31,770 bases of DNA from an uncultured archaeon (GTDB lineage: Archaea > Asgardarchaeota > Lokiarchaeia > Sigyniarchaeales > Promethearchaeaceae): the NCBI GenBank assembly GCA_964426185.1, contig CAYRPF010000015.1, positions 17,320 to 49,089 on the forward strand, in the 5' to 3' direction. The notes under the pieces are model-generated. The model was not told the origin of the DNA and ran no database searches. It saw only the letters and a program-made list of their open reading frames with translations. The translations under genes and the position numbers were made by a program. Shown piece after piece: positions 1,633-17,343 of the stretch (position 1 is its first letter; each line of letters begins with the position of its first letter).

Positions 1633-2919
1633 ATGCCTTCAAAAAAACCTGAATTACTAGTTCCTCTTAATGGATGGAAAACTCTTCACAATTCTTCCAC
1701 TGTTTTAGATTCAGCAGATGCATTTTATTTTGGCCTACAGACAAATTTCAGTATGCGTGCACGAGCAGATAATTTTCCCATTAAAGATCTTCTGAAACTG
1801 ATAGAAATGGTGCACGATCGCGGTAAGAAATGCTATTTAACCACAAATATTCTAATTTACAATACAGAAATGGTCGAACTATATCAAACAATTCAGTTAG
1901 CCCATGAATCCGGAGTAGATGCAATTATCTGCCACGATTTAGCCGCGATTCTTATTGCTAAAGAAGTTGGTATTCCATTCCATGTTTCTACTCAAGCTAA
2001 TATTTCTAATCTACTAAGTGCCAAATTTTATCAAGAATTGGGGGCAGATAGGTTGATTTTGGCTCGGGAACTTGATTTGAATGATATTAAGGAAATTGCA
2101 TCAAAATTAGATATCCCCATTGAAACATTTGTTCATGGTGCAATGTGTACGGCTGTAAGTGGGCGATGTTATCTATCGGCAGAATTAATGGGTTTCAATC
2201 CAGATTTTTCCGCAAACCGCGGTAAATGTGTTCAACCGTGTCGTCGAAATTATACCTTGGAATTTACCGGTGAAGAAAATGAAAAAATAGATTTTGAGCC
2301 TTATTCGGGAATGTTTTTTAATGCTAAAGATCTTTGCATGATTGGGCATATCTCTGAGCTAATTGAAGCTGGAATCAGTTCTTTCAAAGTTGAAGGTCGA
2401 ATGCGAGATCCTGAATATATCGAAACAACCGCTAAATGCTATCGAGAAGCTATTGATTCTTATTTTAATGGAACGTATTCCCAAAAACGGGTTGATGAAT
2501 GGTTATCCCGATTAAGTAAAGTGTTTAATCGTGGTTTTCACTTAGGATTTTATTTCTCAAAACCAGGTTCAGATGATATTGAGCGAACAATTCGAGGAAA
2601 TCAAGCCAAATTACGGAAAATCCAAATAGGAAAGGTTACTAATTATTATCCAGCAGCAAGTGCCGTAGAGGTGCAACTTTTCCAAAACCACCTTGAAATA
2701 GGCGATACGATCATTTTTGAGAATAAAAATGGTTTCTATCATAAACAGCAAGTAAAATCTCTTCAAATCGAAGGAGAATCAATAACAAATACCAAAAAAA
2801 TGAGCACAACTCAACCGATAATCGTGGGAATTAAAGTTTCAAAAAAAATACCAAATACCGCCGTGATTTATAAATTCATAAAAAAAACAACCTCGAAAAT
2901 GAAAAAAAAAATTGATTAA
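1633..2919 (+). CDS. Peptidase U32 family Fe-S protein (TrhP/YegQ-like, probable RNA hydroxylase)
   Basis: Motifs HVSTQAN, ILAREL, ETFVHGAMCTAVSGRCYLS, NRGKCVQPCR, KDLC and KVEGR; C-terminal beta-barrel region. Confidence 0.88.
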   Translation: MPSKKPELLVPLNGWKTLHNSSTVLDSADAFYFGLQTNFSMRARADNFPIKDLLKLIEMVHDRGKKCYLTTNILIYNTEMVELYQTIQLAHESGVDAIICHDLAAILIAKEVGIPFHVSTQANISNLLSAKFYQELGADRLILARELDLNDIKEIASKLDIPIETFVHGAMCTAVSGRCYLSAELMGFNPDFSANRGKCVQPCRRNYTLEFTGEENEKIDFEPYSGMFFNAKDLCMIGHISELIEAGISSFKVEGRMRDPEYIETTAKCYREAIDSYFNGTYSQKRVDEWLSRLSKVFNRGFHLGFYFSKPGSDDIERTIRGNQAKLRKIQIGKVTNYYPAASAVEVQLFQNHLEIGDTIIFENKNGFYHKQQVKSLQIEGESITNTKKMSTTQPIIVGIKVSKKIPNTAVIYKFIKKTTSKMKKKID

Positions 2920-7221: not shown

Positions 7222-8082
7222 TTATGAACGTAAAAGTTCAACCATATTTTCTTCATGGAAAATCTCAGCATTTGTAATTGGTATAAACGCAATTTCTCCT
7301 TTTTTAATGGGCCCATAAACGGTGAAATCAATACCTACAAATGGTTCAATCTTTTTGGTTGCTAATATTCTTTGAAATTGGATATTATCCATAGAAATAG
7401 ATAATTTTCGATCTAAAGACGTAGAAATAGGTGAATCATCAGTTATAAAAATGGAATTTAAGGGTTCTTGACTAATTTTTTCAATTTCTATACTATCCGA
7501 ATTTAATTCTTCAGAATCGATGTCTGCAATAGATGTCATTTCGGAATTTTTTATGTTGAGTGAACTATCACTATGAATTTCGGTTTTATTATTTAAATCT
7601 TCTCCATCTAAGTTAGATTCTGGGAACGAAATAAAATTATTCGGACTTCGCAATGGTTGTAATATCTGTTGTTTAGCTTTGGAAATTCCTCTAAATGCAG
7701 GATGCAACTGTTGGTAAAACCTTTTTTCAAAGCTAAATAAGGTTTCTTCCTGAATTGGTTCATTATGTTGAGCAGCTTTAATTATTTTTTCTTCTCGAAT
7801 TGCTAAAAAATCTGAGATCATATATTGAATATTGGCAAGAGATTTCTGAATTATCAACTGAATAGTTAAATTCTCGGCTTCTTTCAGTTGTCGTCGGAGT
7901 TCATTGCCTAAAAGACGGATTTGGGGAAAAAATCTTTCTTGATCAATAAGTTTCTGCAATTTTTTGGATGAATGTGCTCGTTTCCAAGCTCGAAATAGTT
8001 GATTATATATTTTTTCTTGAGTTATTCCATCCATTTTTATTGCTTCCGATTCTGATTTAATCATTTGTGGTTGAATTATCAC
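7222..8082 (-). CDS. gins51: GINS complex subunit Gins51 (Gins15) with long acidic linker
   Basis: Helical A domain (AWKRA..LQKL..LAIREEKII..LFSFEKRFY) and C-terminal B domain (KIEPFVGIDFTVYGPIKKGEIAFIPITNAEIF); directly downstream of priS. Start may be a later ATG. Confidence 0.88.
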   Translation of the reverse strand: MIIQPQMIKSESEAIKMDGITQEKIYNQLFRAWKRAHSSKKLQKLIDQERFFPQIRLLGNELRRQLKEAENLTIQLIIQKSLANIQYMISDFLAIREEKIIKAAQHNEPIQEETLFSFEKRFYQQLHPAFRGISKAKQQILQPLRSPNNFISFPESNLDGEDLNNKTEIHSDSSLNIKNSEMTSIADIDSEELNSDSIEIEKISQEPLNSIFITDDSPISTSLDRKLSISMDNIQFQRILATKKIEPFVGIDFTVYGPIKKGEIAFIPITNAEIFHEENMVELLRS

Positions 8083-8119
8083 TTTTGCTTGCCAATGTTA
8101 TGTATGCATTCAATTTTTA

Positions 8120-9394
8120 TTAATTTTTTATTAATTCCGCGACATCTTTGCACAAAAGAAAAATTCCAACATTTAATGGAAGCGTATATTCTTGACCATG
8201 AATTAAATTATCATATATCTTATTTCCAATGCGTATTGGAGGGCAAATTGGCGCGGTAATCTTCAGAGTTAACCGATTGGGGCTATTTTGTGGAAATGTA
8301 AGAGCATCAACTAAGGGATCAAACTCATCCAATTTATCATAGGGAACATCCACCACTCTTAATCCTGCTTTTCCATGTATTGACCCTTCTAAGCGGATTA
8401 AACGATGAAGATCGATTGAAACCACCACATCTATGTCAGCTTTAATTCGATCCCGTAAAATCTCGAAAATACGATGCCAAGTAGCAAGACCTACATGGGG
8501 AATTCCCCAAATGCGATTCTTAGATTCGATTCGATGCATTAATTCTAATCTTTGGTCGATAATATGGTGTAAAACATTAGAGCGAATCGGAGTTCCATAT
8601 CGCGGCTTGGTAAAGACTTCTTGAATGGCATTTTTTCCTTTTGCCAAGACTTGATAGAATTCATACGCAATTTTTCCCGGCCATCCAGGTTGATCAATAG
8701 TAAATCCAACCATATTCGCTTGAATGGTTTTAAAATTCCAAACATTATAAGAAAAACCTTGGCCTGTAACATAATCTGCAATCTCTCTTCTTTCTTCTTG
8801 ATCTAAAGCACGAAAAACTTCCGATTCTATGCGAACATGATAACCACGGTGACCAGAAAAGTTGAGTTTAATCGCAGAAAGAGGAATATTAAAATCTTTT
8901 AGTAAAAATCCGTCAATCAAGTGATGAACTTGTTCTTTCGAAATATTTAGGCATTCATCACAGATCCAAACCACCTTTTTAAATTTCTTATTATGGCAAT
9001 CGGGACATTCTTCAGGTTTATCCCCTATCAGTAATTTACCACAATTTTTGCACATTACGTAATTGTGAGTATGCTGACAAGAAGTAGGAATATGATCTGA
9101 ATCAATATCTACCACGAAATCACAACCTAAATACCCTTTATTCTCCATTTTATCTGCAGATGGAATAGAATAAATACTGGCACTGCGGTAACTATGCCTT
9201 GGAGCATATTTTATCAAATAATTTAATAGAAAAGATTTATCAGGATAACCAATATGTCTTTGCATTCCCGGATAATCCCAGCGAATAAAGGCAAATTCTC
9301 TTTGATTTAAGTTGCTTATCGCTGGGTAATCGTTAAAATGCGACTTGTAATATGCTTGAAACAATTTTTGTAAGTATAATTGGGTTAAATTCAT
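8120..9394 (-). CDS. priS: DNA primase small (catalytic) subunit
   Basis: QREFAF, DFVVDID, FSGHRGYHV, DVVVSIDLHRLIRLEGSIHGK. Confidence 0.96.
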   Translation of the reverse strand: MNLTQLYLQKLFQAYYKSHFNDYPAISNLNQREFAFIRWDYPGMQRHIGYPDKSFLLNYLIKYAPRHSYRSASIYSIPSADKMENKGYLGCDFVVDIDSDHIPTSCQHTHNYVMCKNCGKLLIGDKPEECPDCHNKKFKKVVWICDECLNISKEQVHHLIDGFLLKDFNIPLSAIKLNFSGHRGYHVRIESEVFRALDQEERREIADYVTGQGFSYNVWNFKTIQANMVGFTIDQPGWPGKIAYEFYQVLAKGKNAIQEVFTKPRYGTPIRSNVLHHIIDQRLELMHRIESKNRIWGIPHVGLATWHRIFEILRDRIKADIDVVVSIDLHRLIRLEGSIHGKAGLRVVDVPYDKLDEFDPLVDALTFPQNSPNRLTLKITAPICPPIRIGNKIYDNLIHGQEYTLPLNVGIFLLCKDVAELIKN

Positions 9395-9400
9395 AACAGA

Positions 9401-10729
9401 TCACTTTTCTTTGGATGGATTGGTTGGCTTTGATGAAGATGATGAAGATGATGAAGTTTGAGAACATGGAAAAGATTGTGAAGAATGTGAAGTTGAAGAA
9501 GATGAAGTGTTTGAAGTATTTGAAGGAATTTGGGTCCTGTGAATTCTGTTTAATTCAACTTTTTTCCAGAAAATATAATCGTTAATGGGATTTTTTATTG
9601 GATGAATAGTTCCATCTTTCCATTTTGCACCTTGTACACAAAGTTTATCCCCAAATTGTGGATTATCTGCTTTGCATAAACGAAAACTTTTCAATTTCGC
9701 ACAGTTGTACATTTTATACTTCTTTCCTTTTCCCCCCGAACCAGCCGCAAATTCCACTTGATACCTCGCAATTGATTCATCGAAGTCAGGGATAGTTCTA
9801 AAAATATCCACAGTTTCTTCTATAGTATGGTTTGTATTCAGAAAATAAAAAGCAATGGCTAAGCGTTCATTATGAGATAAGTTTTCACCTTGTGAAGCAC
9901 GATATAGAATCATTTTCATACAAGGCGGGAATAAATCATATTCAATTTTTTCATCACTTAAAAAACCCGAAGAAGAAAACTTTTTTGTATTTTCCTCCAC
10001 AAATTTTTCTACAACATTTAAAATCCGTTTAATAGGCGGAATTTTTTCGATTTCTTCCTTAATATCTGCATCAATGATATTGTAATCAGGTTTAGTTTTA
10101 TTTCTAACCATTTCTCTTAATAATAAAATTACGTCATCACGGATTAGGTGTACTTTACCATTTTGGAAAATCCGATTAATTAATTTCCATCGATCCCCAG
10201 TTAATTTTGTTGCAACCTTCAGATACGAATGAAAATCCATTTGAAAAGGATATATTACATTATCAATTTGGTTTTTGGGAGTTACTTCACAAAGTAATCC
10301 AAGATTACGGCAGATACTTTGTAATTGAATATTATTATATTTAATACCAGACCGAGTACGGGTCGAAATTGTAGATTTTAATTCATTTTGACAATGCTTG
10401 GCATAGATATTAGCCATGGCATTTCCAAGTATACGATTTCCTAATAATGAAAGAAGCATTTGAATAACGGGATACATCGCTAAGTTTGTGACATCACCTG
10501 ATGAAAAGGGATAATTTTCCTTGGATTCTGCACAATAATTAAAAAATTTAATAATGCGAGATTCTAATTCAGGAAATTCGCTAAAAAGCTGTTGGATCAT
10601 GACGACTAAAGATATCTTCTCCGCATCTTCATCTGAAAATCCCAATTTTTCCATCAATATAGCACTACTGCCATTAAGCCATGGAAATTGGAGAAAATAT
10701 TGAGAAGGAAGAGAAGGTTTGGAACTCAT
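9401..10729 (-). CDS. priL: DNA primase large subunit with [4Fe-4S] C-terminal domain and Ser-rich tail
   Basis: WKLINR..NGKV, FPPCM, NLSHNERL, PDFDESIARYQVE, YNCAKLKSFRLC, LC..IKNP. Confidence 0.94.
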   Translation of the reverse strand: MSSKPSLPSQYFLQFPWLNGSSAILMEKLGFSDEDAEKISLVVMIQQLFSEFPELESRIIKFFNYCAESKENYPFSSGDVTNLAMYPVIQMLLSLLGNRILGNAMANIYAKHCQNELKSTISTRTRSGIKYNNIQLQSICRNLGLLCEVTPKNQIDNVIYPFQMDFHSYLKVATKLTGDRWKLINRIFQNGKVHLIRDDVILLLREMVRNKTKPDYNIIDADIKEEIEKIPPIKRILNVVEKFVEENTKKFSSSGFLSDEKIEYDLFPPCMKMILYRASQGENLSHNERLAIAFYFLNTNHTIEETVDIFRTIPDFDESIARYQVEFAAGSGGKGKKYKMYNCAKLKSFRLCKADNPQFGDKLCVQGAKWKDGTIHPIKNPINDYIFWKKVELNRIHRTQIPSNTSNTSSSSTSHSSQSFPCSQTSSSSSSSSKPTNPSKEK

Positions 10730-10873
10730 AATTACTCACTTCTGAGTATATATTTTATGATATATGGAGCTTCCGAAGAAAGTTCTGCCTTTATAAATTC
10801 ACTGTATTCAAATTTAATAATTTGATCAAATTTTTTAAATAGTAAAAAATTTGTTTTACAGAAGTGAAAAACT

Positions 10874-12307
10874 ATGAAGATTAATGAAATTATTGCTTCA
10901 TGGAAGCCTGTTAAACGTTGGGTTACCCTAATTAGCTTTCTATTATCTTTCTCGACATTAGCTTTGCTAATATGGGTAATTTCTTTGCCAAGAAATATGC
11001 AGTTGTTTAAGTGGAGCCCTCCACAAAGACAGATTTTTATTATAGTTTGCATCGTTGCAGCTATTGTGCCATTAGGATTTGTATTTGATTTCATTTTTCG
11101 AATGAAAAAAAATGTAATTTCAAAAAAAATCCCTGGAAAATATGTATATGCCTTAGTATTAATTGGAATAATACTACCAAGCGCATATTTGATTTATCTA
11201 TCTCCTTACCATCACGTGGGGGATAAAGCACCTGAACTCATGATTATTGATCAACCAGGTGTGAGTGGTTATCCAAATTTAGCCGTAATGTTTTATACTC
11301 AAAAGGCCACCACCGAATTCATTAATTATGGCACAAGTATGTCTGACATGGACACTCAAGTTCTTGATTCGAATCCGATCCATTCACATGTTTTTGTTTT
11401 AAAAGATCTAAATCCCGGTATACAATATTTTTACCAAATTAATGGAGAAGGAAAAATATATAATTTTACCTATTTTCCTGCATCTACCAATGATTTAAAA
11501 TTCGGAATTAGCTCCGATGTGCATATAGGAGCAGAAGATTGTAATTTAACGGCAGTTACTGGAATTTTGGAACAAATGGTTAATCCTACAAATTCATATA
11601 ATGCCTTTTTCTGTTTAGGAGATATTGTTGATATGGGAAATGATGACAGCATGTATCAAGAACAAATTGAATTATTCTCCCCATATACAACCGCAATTCC
11701 ATTTCGGAACATGATAGGTAATCACGATGGATGGTTCGGTGGAGTAGAATTTTGGAAGGACTATTTTTATCCTGTAAATGCACCAAGTAATTCCAGCGAT
11801 TCTCAGCTGTGGCATCAATATGATTTTGGTCCCAATATTCATGTTTTTAATTTAGACTTAGAATGGGGAATAGAATCATACACGGAAGCTCAAAAGGTTT
11901 GGTTTGAAGAAAAACTGCAAGCATTGGATCCCGATGACTGGATTATCGTTATGAACCATGCCTATTATTACGCTTCAAGCACAGAATATGATGGAATCCC
12001 TTGGTATGACAATCCTGATATGATTAACACTTTCCAACCATTATTTAAACAATATGGGGTGGATTTAGTGTTCGCAGGGCATGATCACCAAATGGAGCAC
12101 ATCGCCCAAGATGGTGTTGACTACTTCATTGTTGGTGCAATGGGCGGTTATCGTGATAAAGATCCAACTTTTTACTCGGAAAATTCGCAATTCTTTGATA
12201 ACACTCATTTTGGATTTGCAGATGTGCAATTTAATGGAGTTAATGTCACAGTTTCATTCAGAACTCCAGAAAATACTTTGCTTTATAATGTTACAATTAA
12301 TCAATAA
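10874..12307 (+). CDS. Membrane-anchored purple-acid-phosphatase-like metallophosphoesterase
   Basis: Three N-terminal TM helices, FN3-like region (LKDLNPGIQYFYQI), and motifs SDVH, GDIVD, GNHD, VMNH, GHDH. Confidence 0.88.
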   Translation: MKINEIIASWKPVKRWVTLISFLLSFSTLALLIWVISLPRNMQLFKWSPPQRQIFIIVCIVAAIVPLGFVFDFIFRMKKNVISKKIPGKYVYALVLIGIILPSAYLIYLSPYHHVGDKAPELMIIDQPGVSGYPNLAVMFYTQKATTEFINYGTSMSDMDTQVLDSNPIHSHVFVLKDLNPGIQYFYQINGEGKIYNFTYFPASTNDLKFGISSDVHIGAEDCNLTAVTGILEQMVNPTNSYNAFFCLGDIVDMGNDDSMYQEQIELFSPYTTAIPFRNMIGNHDGWFGGVEFWKDYFYPVNAPSNSSDSQLWHQYDFGPNIHVFNLDLEWGIESYTEAQKVWFEEKLQALDPDDWIIVMNHAYYYASSTEYDGIPWYDNPDMINTFQPLFKQYGVDLVFAGHDHQMEHIAQDGVDYFIVGAMGGYRDKDPTFYSENSQFFDNTHFGFADVQFNGVNVTVSFRTPENTLLYNVTINQ

Positions 12308-12385
12308 GAGAAATTTGCTATTTACCGTAGTTTTCTCTTCTTTTTTATATTATATTCATAGTTATTATGAGGTCCCAAAGAGTTG

Positions 12386-12437
12386 CACTCTTCTCCGATT
12401 ATCGCATCGTTTATCGATAATCATCATCGCGAACGAT
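12386..12437 (-). ncRNA. Eukaryote-type (Loki-type) SECIS element in the 3' UTR of the UU selenoprotein gene
   Basis: Minus strand: AUGA (12427-12424), UGAUUAUCG (12423-12415), loop AUAAACGAUG, CGAUAAUCG (12404-12396), GA (12395-12394). Nine contiguous base pairs (one U-G), an AAA in the loop and an AUGA/GA core, starting 15 nt after the TAA. Confidence 0.85.
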
Positions 12438-12442
12438 TAAAT

Positions 12443-12772
12443 TTAATGTAATATCTTTTTCAAAAAAAGTTCAGAGCGATTACTAAGAGAAATATACGCA
12501 TCTTGGTTATTTTCTAAGATGGAAGGCTCAATCCAAATTGGAATTTCTAAGTTTTTCATATACAGTTCAACAAGTTTTTTATGTAAACTTTGCTCCAATT
12601 GTACTCGATCTTCTGCGGAAAATTTCTGAGAATAATCGCAAATTCTCACATGATAGAAATCTATCAATCCTCATCATTGGCTGGTTTTTTCCAGAGTTAT
12701 TAATAACACTGGTGTTTTCATTTTCTTTGCTTCAGAATTCACATATTTCATAGCTTTCGTAGAAATTTTCAT
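12443..12772 (-). CDS. HesB-like / CC-Se-motif family selenoprotein with two adjacent Sec (U33-U34), 109 aa
   Basis: SD GGGTG 5 nt before ATG 12772 (alternative ATG 12784 overlaps the upstream TAA). Reads MKISTKAMKYVNSEAKKMKTPVLLITLEKTSQ-TGA(12676-74)-TGA(12673-71)-GLIDFYHVRICD..., in frame with track ORF 12443..12667. Aligns with the Cys-Cys paralog upstream; SECIS downstream. Confidence 0.85.
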
Positions 12773-12783
12773 CCCATCACCCA

Positions 12784-13074
12784 TTATGTATCCGATATTG
12801 ATTTTTCTAAAAAATTTAACGCTTTAATATTTCCAAAGGTTCTAATGTCAATTATTCCTGAATTCATATATTTTTCGGTATTTCGAGAGAAATATACTTT
12901 GATATCATCAAATTTTTTGATATCTACAATTTCTTCTTTACGAATCTTTTTTCCAAGGATAATACGCGGGATAAATTCAGTACTGCAACAAGATCTCATA
13001 GTGATTTCTACAATGGTTAATTCTTGTATGCTTTTTTCTTGAAGGTATTTTTTAGCTTTTTCGGTTATGTGCAT
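12784..13074 (-). CDS. HesB-like / CC-Se-motif family protein (Cys-Cys form)
   Basis: MHITEKAKKYL..TMRSCCSTEFIPRIILGK..DIKVYF; ATG 13074 follows GGGAG (track start 13104 is probably too long). Confidence 0.8.
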   Translation of the reverse strand: MHITEKAKKYLQEKSIQELTIVEITMRSCCSTEFIPRIILGKKIRKEEIVDIKKFDDIKVYFSRNTEKYMNSGIIDIRTFGNIKALNFLEKSISDT

Positions 13075-13109
13075 GATTTCTCCCTTGATGAAATATCCTT
13101 GCAAAAAAA

Positions 13110-13520
13110 TTAGGGATCTAAATATTTAACAGTTAAATTTGCAATATGTTCTGCCAATTTAGTGCAATATTCATGATTTTTCCATTTAAAGTCATTTAAA
13201 GGTCCTTTTTCAATTTCTTCATATTCTTGGGGGTTGAAAAATTCATTTAAGAATATACTTTCCACGGGTTTAACTCCTATACTTTCGACTCCCTTTTTGG
13301 CGCAGGCTTTATCGCATCCATCTATAGTAATACATGGAAATTTTTTCACAAAATTTTGTTCTTGTTCATCTCCCGCTAAAAAGAGGGGAACGCAAACCGT
13401 GGTTGTCATTCCTTTTAAGTATTCATCCAAAACTTTTCTTGTAGCAAGGCGCGAAATGGTTCCACACGGATATTCTTCCCCACTACATGAAAGTAGTCCA
13501 ACAAATTTTGGTTTAAACAT
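13110..13520 (-). CDS. DGC-domain putative Zn/metal-binding protein
   Basis: SCSG..GTISR, VC, ITIDGCDKACA. Confidence 0.9.
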   Translation of the reverse strand: MFKPKFVGLLSCSGEEYPCGTISRLATRKVLDEYLKGMTTTVCVPLFLAGDEQEQNFVKKFPCITIDGCDKACAKKGVESIGVKPVESIFLNEFFNPQEYEEIEKGPLNDFKWKNHEYCTKLAEHIANLTVKYLDP

Positions 13521-13940
13521 TTATGCTTCACCGTGTACACTAACTAATTCATCAATTAACTCTGAGATTTCGATTCCAATTCGTTTTGCGAGTTGCTGAC
13601 CATCTTGACCAGGATCAGAAACATTTCTGGTATTAACCTTCAAATCACGATTTTTTACCAAGAATTTCGCCACTAAAAAAGATTTAGAAACTTCTGCATC
13701 TTTTTCAAGTAAGTGTTTATAGGCACACCTTTTTGAGCAACCGTCAATAGTGATATTATAATTATGATGCACTTTTGCTACAGATTCATCATCACCAGTA
13801 ACCAATCGAGCCAAGCATAATAATTCCGCATTTTCGGGTTTTAAATTTTCCTTTATCTCAAAAGCAGCCCATCGGCTAATCGTACCGAATGCTTTTCCAA
13901 TACCACTACACGGTAATACATTTACTTTGGTTTTGTTCAA
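13521..13940 (-). CDS. DGC-domain putative Zn/metal-binding protein
   Basis: PCSG..GTISR, LCL, ITIDGCSKRCA; TTG start overlaps the upstream TGA. Confidence 0.9.
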   Translation of the reverse strand: MNKTKVNVLPCSGIGKAFGTISRWAAFEIKENLKPENAELLCLARLVTGDDESVAKVHHNYNITIDGCSKRCAYKHLLEKDAEVSKSFLVAKFLVKNRDLKVNTRNVSDPGQDGQQLAKRIGIEISELIDELVSVHGEA

Positions 13941-14833
13941 TATTGTAACCCCTCTTCTTTAATTTTTTCTTCTAAAAATTCAAAATACTGATATGGATTC
14001 ATCAAATCATCGATTTCTTCCTTATAATTAGGACATTTTACTAAAACAATCCATCCCTTCAAATATGGATCTTCATTAATCCATTCAGGATATTCTTCTA
14101 ATTCATGATTTACAGCCAGAACTTCCCCGCTGAATGGAGTTAATACTTCATTTACAGTTTTACTGGACTCGATATTTGCGACGGCTTCGAATTGATCGAT
14201 TTTATCTCCTATTTTAGGCAGTTCACATATTAAAATATCGGCCAATTTTGTTTGCAAATAATCGGTAATCCCAATGAAGAATTTCCCTTCCCCAATATGA
14301 TAAGCCCATGCTTCATTCCAATTAAAAAAGAGGTTTTTATCATTCACTGGAACTTTGAAATGAAATTTTGAAAACTCCGCTTCCAAAAACTGAGAGTATT
14401 CGGGATTAAATTCAACCTTATTTTCTGGTTTGGTTTCCATATTTTGACTTTTTTCTAAAAAAACCTCGATTTGGCTTAGAATCTGATTTGATATGGATTT
14501 AACGGCTTCATGATCTTGATAATCAAGGGTAGCCTGACCTTTCTGTGGAAGTTTTATATCTTTTATGATTTTAGGTATGCTTATAATTAAATTTGGTTTT
14601 ATTTTGCGCTGATTTAAGATTTTATTGACACATTGAATAGCACATCCATTTAAAGCAATAGTATTGTCACCCAAAATGCTTTCTTTGTATTCACCTGCGG
14701 CTATTTGAGATATGGAAGGCTCTAATGTTATTTTTGACGGATTTGCGCGTTTTAAATGTAAAATGGCTAAAGTGCAAAGTTGGCCTAATAATTTTTCACA
14801 TCCCATACAAGGTATAACAATGTTTTTCTTCAT
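13937..14833 (-). CDS. Fusion: N-terminal DGC-like domain + C-terminal GcvH-like lipoyl-carrier domain
   Basis: PCMG..IALNGCAIQCV (DGC variant), then NEAWA..IGITDYLQTKLADI..IESSKTVNEVLTPFSGEV..NEDPYLKGWI with the lipoyl Lys intact. Confidence 0.9.
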   Translation of the reverse strand: MKKNIVIPCMGCEKLLGQLCTLAILHLKRANPSKITLEPSISQIAAGEYKESILGDNTIALNGCAIQCVNKILNQRKIKPNLIISIPKIIKDIKLPQKGQATLDYQDHEAVKSISNQILSQIEVFLEKSQNMETKPENKVEFNPEYSQFLEAEFSKFHFKVPVNDKNLFFNWNEAWAYHIGEGKFFIGITDYLQTKLADILICELPKIGDKIDQFEAVANIESSKTVNEVLTPFSGEVLAVNHELEEYPEWINEDPYLKGWIVLVKCPNYKEEIDDLMNPYQYFEFLEEKIKEEGLQY

Positions 14834-14843
14834 GACTTGTACC

Positions 14844-15194
14844 TCACTTTGAATTTAAATCTTCGATTGAGTTGAGAACATCTTCAAGATACATTAAACC
14901 AGGTCCACCACTCATTACCACCGCAACTAAACTCGCTTCAAGAATCTCTTCTTTGGTTGCCCCAGCTTGCAATGCATTAGCCACATGCCAAGTAATGCAA
15001 CGATCGCATTGAGATTTGACGGACAATGCAACCGCAATCAATTCTTTAAATTTTTTAGATAAAGCTCCAGCTTTTTCAGTTTCAAATATAAATTTTTGAA
15101 AACTTTGCATCCATTTTGGATTAAATTCTCCTATTTCTTTCATACTTTCGTTAATTTTTGTTAATTTTTCTTTGACATTCACTTTGATATTCAC
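14844..15194 (-). CDS. Carboxymuconolactone decarboxylase / AhpD-core family protein
   Basis: GALSKKFKELIAVALSVKSQCDRCITWH..GATKEEILEA..MSGGPG with CxxC; start may be GTG 15182 after AGGTGA. Confidence 0.92.
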   Translation of the reverse strand: MNIKVNVKEKLTKINESMKEIGEFNPKWMQSFQKFIFETEKAGALSKKFKELIAVALSVKSQCDRCITWHVANALQAGATKEEILEASLVAVVMSGGPGLMYLEDVLNSIEDLNSK

Positions 15195-15207
15195 CTTTTT
15201 TAGAGAT

Positions 15208-15531
15208 TTATTTTGATTTTAAGCTTGCTTTGATTTGTTTAATTTGGGCTAAAACTTCCTTTTTGGGTTGAAAAATCATGGCATCTTTCGGGCACATTTT
15301 CAAACAAGCTTGGCAAAATACAACACAATTTTTAGGATTTACAACATGAACTTTCCCATCAACCATAGAATAAACCCCATGTGCGCAAAAATTAACACAA
15401 TCTCCGCAATCGTTACATTTGGAATAATCCAAAGTTGGGAACCAATCAATATCCTTTCGATCAACACCCATAAAGCGATGTACTTGTTTAGGAATATTAT
15501 TCGTTTGAATCCGCTCCTTGGTTAATAACAC
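15208..15531 (-). CDS. 2x[4Fe-4S] ferredoxin family protein
   Basis: CNDCGDCVNFCAHGV and CVVFCQACLKMCP; start codon uncertain. Confidence 0.92.
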   Translation of the reverse strand: MLLTKERIQTNNIPKQVHRFMGVDRKDIDWFPTLDYSKCNDCGDCVNFCAHGVYSMVDGKVHVVNPKNCVVFCQACLKMCPKDAMIFQPKKEVLAQIKQIKASLKSK

Positions 15532-15895
15532 CCCAATCCGATAGTTGAGATTCTATCGCTTCGAAAGCTTCATCTGTGGTCATATTTCTTACATCGAGAG
15601 GTCTGACCCATTCTTCAAAATCTAATCCCGCTTCTTTAAAACCATGTCCAATCAATTTTCTTTGCATATTAGGAGAACAGCCTGCTAAGAAGTATTTTAT
15701 GCCATTTTTTCTCACTAAATCAATCATATTCGCTATGAATCGATCTCCATCTACTTCACACATTTGAGGATGGACAATTGCCCATTCTACTGGTAATGCC
15801 AACCTAACTTGATTGATTAAGTCCCAAACATTCATGGTGGCAAATCCAGGGCAATCACCAGTACAAACGCAGAGTATAAAACCAACCTTTGACAT
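15497..15895 (-). CDS. Stand-alone heterodisulfide reductase subunit A N-terminal-like domain protein
   Basis: KVGFILCVC..HPQMC..LAGCSP..FKEAGL..LDVRN mirrors the HdrA N-terminal domain; no FAD domain. Confidence 0.8.
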   Translation of the reverse strand: MSKVGFILCVCTGDCPGFATMNVWDLINQVRLALPVEWAIVHPQMCEVDGDRFIANMIDLVRKNGIKYFLAGCSPNMQRKLIGHGFKEAGLDFEEWVRPLDVRNMTTDEAFEAIESQLSDWGVINQGADSNE

Positions 15896-15918
15896 GTGAA
15901 ATATAGGTTCTAATTAAA

Positions 15919-15942
15919 TTAAAATGTTTTGAAAAATTTTAA
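15919..15942 (-). promoter_or_regulatory. BRE/TATA promoter of the redox operon with overlapping imperfect palindrome (possible ArsR operator)
   Basis: TTAAAAT-GTTTTGAAAA-ATTTTAA; minus-strand TTTTAA box ~24 nt before ATG 15895. Confidence 0.45.
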
Positions 15943-15993
15943 ACTGGCTATGTAAATGTAATGGGATTTGAGTAAAGGAAAGAGCAAGGAGAT

Positions 15994-16341
15994 CTATAAG
16001 GTTTTTTTGAGATTTGCAGCAGTGTAGTATATAGTAAAATGACCCCGATTTCGTCCAACAATTAACCCCGCTTCTTCTAACTTTTTAATGTGATGCGTTA
16101 TAGAGCCTTCGGATAATCCGAGGATTTTTGACAGCGAACAATTGCACTGTTCACTTCTTTGAAGAAGATGGTATATCAATAATCGATGTTTGTTGGCCAA
16201 GGCACTGTATTGTTTTAATTCTTTTATGAAATCTTGAGATTGGATAATCTTTTCCTTAATATTTTGGTTTTTAGTCAAAAAATCGGTAGAATTTTGAGAA
16301 CTATCGCAAACTTTGAGAAAATCTTTGATTCTGGAATTCAC
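15994..16341 (-). CDS. ArsR/SmtB family transcriptional regulator with alpha3 CxC motif
   Basis: SALANKHRLLI..EQCNCSLSKILGLSEGSITHHIKKLEEAGLI..GHFTIYY (ELCVCDL-like). Confidence 0.92.
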   Translation of the reverse strand: MNSRIKDFLKVCDSSQNSTDFLTKNQNIKEKIIQSQDFIKELKQYSALANKHRLLIYHLLQRSEQCNCSLSKILGLSEGSITHHIKKLEEAGLIVGRNRGHFTIYYTAANLKKTL

Positions 16342-16557: not shown

Positions 16558-17343
16558 TTAGTCTTCGTACATTGAATCGTCGTCTTCTTCGACCCGCGGA
16601 GCCAGAAAATAAAGCACATGACTCGAATTTAATATATCAAAGTTAATTTTCAACGGAGCTTCCGTACGCAGTTCCGCGGTCAAATTTTGTGCAATAGAAC
16701 CCATTTTTAATATATTTTTCAGAAAAGCGATAGAGAAAACCCCCACACTTTGCTCTTTGAAGTCAGACGAAATCAGTTCCTCTTTTTCCAACACGTATTC
16801 CATATCTCCGATGCTCCCGTTGGTGGAAAAGGTTAAGTTTGGCATAGCTTGAATTTGCAAAACTTCGGCAAAGATTTCAGCATCTTTGATGGCTTCATCT
16901 AAATAGCCGATATTGAAGGTACATATATTATCAAATTCTAAATTGTTTAGAGCATTTACATCAATCTCTTCCCCATCATAATCGATCAAACTCATGGTAA
17001 ACCTTCGTGCTTTCTTGGCTTCTGGAGGTTTCATAGCAATAATCAGCTTTTTTGCTTCAGGATCGTGAGATAATGTAATCTCGTCATTGCTACCACTTCT
17101 TTTCAGGATTTTTACCATATCTTCTAAATTTATTCCTAATTCATAGAGTTGATCCGCTTGAAATTCATCCAGATCATCTTTATGTAAAACTAAGGAAACC
17201 AAACAGATGTGGGAAACATCCATGGCAGTCATTGAAATCCCTATTTCTGGATCTACTTTCAACACCGTTTCACTGATGATGGAAGAAATTGCATCAAATA
17301 TGCCACGAATCATTTTTGCATCTTTAATCTTCACGGTAAACAT
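16558..17343 (-). CDS. pcn: DNA polymerase sliding clamp PCNA
   Basis: AMDVSHICLV, GINLEDMVKILKR, YFLAPRVE. Confidence 0.97.
   Translation of the reverse strand: MFTVKIKDAKMIRGIFDAISSIISETVLKVDPEIGISMTAMDVSHICLVSLVLHKDDLDEFQADQLYELGINLEDMVKILKRSGSNDEITLSHDPEAKKLIIAMKPPEAKKARRFTMSLIDYDGEEIDVNALNNLEFDNICTFNIGYLDEAIKDAEIFAEVLQIQAMPNLTFSTNGSIGDMEYVLEKEELISSDFKEQSVGVFSIAFLKNILKMGSIAQNLTAELRTEAPLKINFDILNSSHVLYFLAPRVEEDDDSMYED

Follow-up and report, generated by a model that had tools for sequence, protein, structure and literature searches.

The window, meaning the whole stretch of 31,770 nucleotides that was analysed, carries on its minus strand a putative selenoprotein gene with two adjacent in-frame UGA codons, a SECIS element just past its stop codon and a cluster of genes in the same orientation on its upstream side. 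The features are listed below in window positions, together with the evidence used to call them.

12443..12772, minus strand: candidate selenoprotein coding sequence, 109 codons plus TAA, with Sec at positions 33 and 34 (U33 and U34; translated with TGA read as U).
12671..12676, minus strand: two adjacent in-frame UGA codons, putatively read as Sec-Sec (sequence and homologue column).
12777..12781, minus strand: Shine-Dalgarno-like GGTGA, 4 nt before ATG 12772 (sequence).
12394..12427, minus strand: SECIS element of the Loki/eukaryote type, starting 15 nt past the stop (sequence, minimum-energy fold and covariation).
Parts of the SECIS, minus strand: AUGA 12427-12424; stem 12423-12415 / 12404-12396; loop AUAAACGAUG 12414-12405; GA 12395-12394 (sequence).
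12784..13074, minus strand: upstream Cys-Cys paralogue (R-S-C-C-S; TGT TGC at 12990-12985), 11 nt from the Sec gene (NF041239, PF01521 and hhalign).
13110..16341, minus strand: rest of the same-strand cluster, from the ArsR to the DGC genes (Pfam and NCBIfam scans).

The frame opens at ATG 12772 with 32 sense codons, continues through TGA TGA (12676-12671), GGA and 74 further sense codons, and closes at TAA 12445-12443, which is exactly the layout claimed in a preliminary description of this DNA, as translation of the region confirmed. The same description held that ORF calling misses the full gene, and the ORF list indeed contains two fragments only, a 74-aa ORF with a TTG start (12443-12667) and a 36-aa N-terminal ORF (12674-12784). 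The Shine-Dalgarno sequence proposed for ATG 12772 is present as GGTGA (12781-12777). The TAA of the Cys-Cys paralogue overlaps an alternative ATG at 12784 as TAATG (12782-12786, minus strand), and this start would add M-G-D-G to the Sec protein; ATG 12772 is favoured because the homologues start with M-[KE]-I. Translational coupling of both genes through the TAATG overlap is possible.

Across the region of the Sec gene, the two other frames of the same strand contain 13 and 8 stops, and when its letters were shuffled, only 9 of 20000 shuffles were free of TAA and TAG with no more than two TGA. The codon-position GC downstream of the UGAs was 0.43/0.23/0.27, compared to 0.43/0.26/0.26 in a nearby real gene. 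An open frame of 109 codons is unlikely to have arisen by chance.

The Sec gene is the last one of the same-strand cluster, which beyond the Cys-Cys paralogue encodes an ArsR-type regulator, a 132-aa unknown protein, a 2x[4Fe-4S] ferredoxin, an AhpD/CMD-like protein with a C-x-x-C-x-x-x-H motif, a DGC-GcvH fusion and two DGC-domain proteins. In the fusion (13937-14833, minus strand), a DGC (four-Cys) domain is joined to a lipoyl domain of the GcvH type in which the lipoyl-lysine motif E-S-S-K is intact; its gene adjoins that of the AhpD-like CxxC protein, a pairing that recalls the lipoamide-dependent reduction of AhpD. The cluster and a convergent metallophosphatase gene make up an insertion of about 5.8 kb (window 10732-16341) between PriL (9401-10729) and PCNA (16558-17343). 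PCNA, PriL and PriS are adjacent at the same site in Ca. Lokiarchaeum ossiferum and in a Promethearchaeota MAG. Because it is inserted between two genes that are adjacent in relatives, the cluster was taken as a strain-specific island. With the PCNA of the window, the Ca. Harpocratesius repetitus protein shares 89% identity and the Ca. Lokiarchaeum ossiferum protein 69%, which makes the organism a Lokiarchaeial (Promethearchaeota) Asgard archaeon.

The Cys-Cys paralogue scored 33.7 bits with NF041239 (cut-off 40), 23.2 bits with PF01521, below the gathering score, and 27.6 bits with the family profile described below. The likeness that the preliminary description saw between both proteins did not appear as a pairwise BLASTP alignment, but it was recovered by profile comparison with hhalign (96%, E 4.8e-9), and this comparison sets the C-C of the paralogue on the U-U column, as had been proposed. 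Tandem pairs of a Cys and a Sec form of the same family were also detected in genomes G208 and G209, from another genus of the order (L047:888-1430 and L046:608-1100, both minus strand), in which the Cys form has A-C-A-G, the Sec form has R-S-U-S-G or G-S-U-T-M, and a SECIS follows each Sec form. The Cys-plus-Sec tandem of the window, as judged from sequence, recurs in another genus.

The preliminary description noted that Lokiarchaeota use Sec with a 3'-UTR SECIS, and a Loki-type element was found 15 nt past the stop of this gene. In the published lokiSECIS (PMC4989117), which lies near the stop, AUGA leads into a stem of 9 bp, GA closes the element, and the apical loop of 11 nt begins rich in A and finishes on G, mostly in the form AG; the AUGA before the stem, the GA after it and the 9-bp stem are all present in the window element. 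Its stem contains eight Watson-Crick pairs and one U-G pair, and the minimum-energy fold gives the same helix. The loop AUAAACGAUG has 10 nt, with A in four of its first five letters and a final G preceded by U, and across the family members the apical loop ranges from 9 to 17 nt.

The strict AUGA-stem-loop-GA pattern occurs 36 times genome-wide (6.5 Mb, both strands). Within 50 nt of the stop, it was found behind 30 of the 38 TGA forms of the family and behind none of the 11 Cys forms. A covariance model (R1) built from the family SECIS elements (alignment A2) added three elements behind TGA forms that the strict pattern had missed, raising the count to 33 of 38, and two further R1 matches corresponded to additional Sec-form genes in tandem with Cys forms. 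Across homologous 3' UTRs, compensatory changes were found at all eight of eight stem pairs; 88% of the cells were paired versus 52% in shuffles (0/500 reached 88%) and versus 34-55% when the pairs were slid, in an alignment that had been fitted to the R1 model, which biases this result somewhat in favour of pairing. The window element itself scored 24 bits with R1 (E 0.4 genome-wide), a low value because the unpaired base that follows AUGA in most copies is missing here. The folding energy of the 3' UTR hairpin was no lower than that of shuffled sequence (z -0.06), and therefore its stability alone is no evidence. An Rfam scan of the 3' UTR gave no match to a SECIS family, and sub-threshold matches to C/D-box snoRNAs over the AUGA region.

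The source assembly of the window (3.26 Mb, 34% GC) was searched for the Sec machinery that the preliminary description had listed for confirmation, and all of its components were located: tRNA-Sec, SepSecS (439 bits), SelB (248 bits, above its cut-off), SelD, i.e. SPS, which carries its own in-frame TGA and so would itself contain Sec, and a PSTK-like gene whose 100 bits lie below the 290-bit cut-off of the family. TGA is an ordinary stop in this genome and not a codon reassigned genome-wide, because it terminates 252 of 1400 long open frames; these frames, together with several family genes that end in TGA, ruled out such a reassignment. A canonical comparison is offered by a VhuD/MvhD-type gene of the same genome (contig C88, around 7900-8440, minus strand), which has two in-frame TGA and the same Loki-type SECIS 25 nt past its stop.

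The family to which the gene belongs was recovered by six-frame searches, with about 40 homologues of the Sec protein in related Lokiarchaeia. When the single Sec protein was the query, a scan of genome contigs returned no relative, and a six-frame search gave weak matches in relatives, each with one or two TGA. A profile (A1) made from the alignment of the first six sequences was then run in six frames, through stops, against 400 genomes of the phylum. The family was present in 12 of the 13 genomes of the same taxonomic family, with 1-5 copies each, and every one of the 33 matches at E <= 1e-9 contained one or two in-frame TGA.

Among the 39 genes labelled for the tree, the dyad column reads U-C in 24, U-U in 9 and C-C in four distant ones; C-F and U-S also occur in distant forms. 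The nine U-U genes come from eight genomes of five genera, counting the window gene and a second copy of its genome, so that eight other genes have TGA-TGA at this column, besides the 24 with TGA-TGY. The UC group has the motif Y-R-G-U-C-G and the UU group K-G-U-U-G-I, and the distant Cys forms show S-C-C-G, T-C-C-G-G or D-C-F-G. Four copies are held by the genome of the window, on contigs C15 (the window gene, UU), C43 (UU), C86 and C16 (both UC), and the genome of the cultured Ca. Lokiarchaeum ossiferum Loki-B35 (G010) has three UC copies and one UU copy, the latter at C1:74841-75149. The in-frame UGA therefore aligns with Cys in homologues, both in the family alignment and in the hhalign comparison to the C-C of the neighbour. 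The preliminary description had named Cys or Sec at this column, together with conserved flanks, as support. Related genomes carry UC, UU or CC there, and the sequence to either side is conserved and under purifying selection.

In protein databases, a word-indexed search and an exhaustive HMMER protein search returned nothing except fragments of the window gene, because gene callers stop at TGA. The UU forms found in public databases (P0006-P0010) are either G-W-W-G proteins or C-terminal fragments of 63-66 aa. The G-W-W-G entries derive from short metagenome contigs in which TGA was called as Trp, and a 63-aa 'hypothetical protein' of Ca. Harpocratesius repetitus at NCBI is the C-terminal fragment of a UU form.

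The structure of the Sec protein was modelled by AlphaFold2 with a 34-sequence alignment (A3), giving a pLDDT of 88.6 and a pTM of 0.80. In this model, U33-U34 occupy the turn of a beta-hairpin between strands 21-32 and 35-46. The top Foldseek matches were IscA (1r94, 1s98), AQ_1857 and SufA, with probability 1.0 and TM 0.56-0.64, and the predicted fold is thus that of the A-type carriers (IscA/HesB). The family profile, when run against PDB sequences, gave 0 matches.

At the sequence level, NCBIfam and Pfam scans of the window Sec protein alone gave no meaningful match, and none to NF041239 was found at E <= 1. When the family members were scanned singly, 29 of 34 matched NF041239 over nearly the full model length (best E 8.8e-12), each of those tested individually scoring below the curated 40-bit cut-off (16-34 bits; 16-30 for relatives other than the neighbour). 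PF01521 was matched weakly by 4 of 34 members. A further weak match to NF041239, on contig C104, was spurious and corresponds to a phosphoglycerate kinase. No family member matched TIGR01911, the HesB-like selenoprotein family of methanogens, at E <= 0.1, and the window motif is U-U-G-L instead of UxGP. Because the relatives lie below the NF041239 cut-off and the window gene does not match it, the name 'CC/Se-motif family' is valid at the superfamily level only. The HesB-like, CC/Se-motif membership that had been suggested thus stands for the superfamily and fails for the curated families, and the gene falls within the IscA/HesB-fold CC/Se superfamily, on a branch specific to Asgard archaea and outside curated NF041239.

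The family shares with IscA, SufA and HesB (PF01521) the fold and the position of the reactive residue in the first beta-hairpin, where Cys35 of IscA is located. IscA and SufA have three cluster-ligand cysteines, among them a C-terminal Cys pair. By contrast, the family alignment has no conserved C-terminal Cys, and a dyad stands where the A-type carriers have one hairpin Cys. This chalcogen dyad on the hairpin tip (G/Q-U-[U/C]-G) is the one reactive site that is invariant in the family. NF041239, the Moorella-type CC/Se motif, is described as bacterial, with one Sec (PMC13188914). The Loki proteins resemble it in their small size (around 90-110 residues) and domain, and their vicinal Cys/Sec dyad falls on the motif column of that family. 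They differ in their archaeal hosts (Lokiarchaeia), in the eukaryote-like SECIS in the 3' UTR versus the in-frame bacterial one, and in having a subfamily with two adjacent Sec.

In eight ortholog pairs of the family, dN/dS was 0.04-0.24 on either side of the dyad, at dS values from 0.4 to above 1. These ratios cover pairs of other family members; for the window copy, which has no close ortholog, profile scores were used instead. In the ortholog pairs, TGA TGA is invariant and the flanking Gly codons change synonymously. With a family profile built without the window gene, the read-through product scored 61.8 bits (E 1.7e-16 versus 60645 genome frames), its N-terminal part alone 28.2 bits and its C-terminal part alone a weak 17.3 bits (E 0.013). 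Conservation therefore continues past the UGAs in the family pairs and, more weakly, in the C-terminal part of the window copy, against the loss there that the preliminary description had linked to a pseudogene.

As the UC forms read TGA TGY, a UU form is one third-base change away from UC. The history of the dyad is likely to have run from CC to UC, with gain of the SECIS, and then to UU, when TGY became TGA through one substitution at the third base. The UU forms fall into two clades of the tree.

Taken together, these data support a real coding sequence in the family, with the right SECIS, in a genome able to insert Sec. From the comparative evidence, we infer that both UGAs are read as Sec, and that they would be decoded by tRNA-Sec and SelB with the help of one Loki-type SECIS in the 3' UTR. 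The sequence comparisons thus make it highly probable that 12443-12772 (minus strand) is a real, unannotated gene for a 109-residue Sec-Sec selenoprotein that belongs to a multi-copy Lokiarchaeial family.

The alternative that survives best accepts the family as real but takes the window copy, within the UU subfamily, for a pseudogene in decay that is no longer made or functional. Among the Sec forms, no branch is longer than that of this copy (1.32), and its position near the Cys forms is weak and not reliable; no close ortholog of it was found in two genomes of the same genus (G001 and G002), and it shows no individual match to NF041239 or Pfam. It has also lost two family motifs, Y-R/K-G ahead of the dyad and, close to the C-terminus, G-[WM]-x-[FY]-K, and it sits in the inserted, strain-specific island. 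The copy therefore appears to be a divergent, strain-specific member of the family. However, its frame of 109 codons is intact to a degree that shuffling rarely reaches, with a codon-position GC like that of a real gene, the SECIS keeps a perfect 9-bp stem and all the core features at the usual distance, and the Shine-Dalgarno sequence and the 11-nt gap to the upstream gene are kept. In addition, the profile built without this copy scores both of its halves, and the model folds confidently. Decay is thus unlikely, and the small room that is left for it reflects that this copy is divergent, lacks close orthologs and lies in an ArsR-linked redox island specific to the strain.

Even less probable is that the UGA pair works as a tandem stop, so that a peptide of 32-36 residues and a 74-residue protein starting at TTG 12667 are produced, or that it is read through with Cys or Trp. 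Gene callers yield exactly these two ORFs, every UU form in the databases is either a G-W-W-G translation or a C-terminal fragment, and TGA ordinarily acts as a stop here; but TTG 12667 has no Shine-Dalgarno sequence, the homologues keep one continuous domain over the dyad, and their TGAs are restricted to the column that aligns with Cys. A SECIS follows the TGA forms and not the Cys forms, in a genome with a complete Sec machinery (the PSTK-like gene scoring below its cut-off), which argues against a stop as well as against another amino acid, and according to the model, a beta-hairpin cut at its tip would probably leave neither half foldable. An assembly or sequencing artefact hiding TGT or TGC has a negligible probability, since, even though the window genome is a metagenome assembly and the depth in the public runs is low (2.3-2.6), the read check advised for 12671-12676 gave contigs from two independent public runs of different studies that cover these positions with zero differences, i.e. 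with the same TGA TGA, and a double TGA is also found in eight other genes from seven other genomes and in four metagenome proteins.

With Sec-Sec as the preferred reading of the dyad, its role can be approached by analogy. The exposed vicinal Se-Se pair may cycle between a diselenol and a diselenide closed in an eight-membered ring and, alternatively or additionally, it could clamp a soft metal or metalloid. The genes of the ArsR-headed cluster would together encode a thiol/selenol relay with the UU protein as its last member, running from the ferredoxin to the lipoyl GcvH-DGC fusion, from this to the AhpD-like CxxC protein, and finally to the CC and UU proteins. In mammalian thioredoxin reductase, a C-terminal Gly-Cys-Sec-Gly forms a selenenylsulfide ring, and mycobacterial AhpD is reduced by lipoamide; both precedents make such a relay plausible. 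The Cys-Cys paralogue could be a heterodimer partner, as in hetero-dimeric A-type carriers, or else a selenium-independent stand-in similar to the Cys isoenzymes of methanococci.

The dyad of the family resembles the GCUG of thioredoxin reductase in being vicinal, placed between Gly residues in most members (G-U-C-G and G-U-U-G) and carried by an exposed flexible element, so that an eight-membered ring is plausible. It differs in the unrelated fold, in its location at a hairpin tip and not in a C-terminal tail, and in its Se-Se or reversed Se-S order. We know of no flavoprotein partner of the Loki dyad proteins. When the proteins of the window cluster were searched for around other family genes, none was shared. 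As the neighbourhood is not common to the other members, the relay drawn from the window cannot be extended to the family as a whole. A thioredoxin gene is divergently adjacent to the UC paralogue on contig C16.

The selenoproteins known from Lokiarchaeota and other Asgard archaea are SPS, VhuU/FrhA, VhuD/FrhD, HdrA, PrxL, AhpF-N and DsbA-like proteins (PMC4989117, PMC11227280). The window gene would share with them the recoding system and the grammar of a SECIS just past the stop, and the use of one SECIS for several UGAs has precedents in VhuD, HdrA and the UxxU of PrxL.1. In contrast to these proteins, its two Sec are adjacent and not separated, and its apical loop has 10 nt versus 11. The family is absent from the seven selenoprotein families reported for more than 400 Asgard genomes (PMC11227280), and a 2026 table of prokaryotic selenoproteins, with its 119 families and subfamilies, lists no U-U motif (PMC13188914). 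Nothing relevant on an adjacent or vicinal Sec pair was found in the literature, which was covered in part. The presence of the family in Lokiarchaeia, its eukaryote-like SECIS and its conserved U-U subfamily look unreported in the literature searched.

We tentatively put forward the wider proposal, plausible though short of probable as a whole, that a conserved Sec-Sec dyad on an IscA-type scaffold acts as an eight-membered-ring diselenide or as a clamp of two selenolates for a metal(loid) or cluster, being made by the recoding of two successive UGAs from one eukaryote-like SECIS, and that the UC/UU family is Lokiarchaeia-wide and was missed by published surveys. With as many as five copies in a genome, the family would noticeably enlarge the selenoproteomes of Lokiarchaeia, and it shows that short proteins escape homology-seeded searches, as well as that annotation pipelines cut these genes short or translate the dyad as Trp-Trp. 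A Sec-Sec dyad conserved across genera also raises questions on the redox potential of a vicinal diselenide and on ligation by Se only.

The same genome looks to encode another protein, unrelated to the first, in which two Sec are adjacent, judging from an ORF of around 170 codons on contig C42 (around 2100-2600, plus strand). No family was assigned to this ORF, which has TGA TGA directly after a Cys (D-A-Q-C-U-U-N-A-V) and is followed by a Loki-type SECIS whose apical loop contains the TAA stop of the gene itself.
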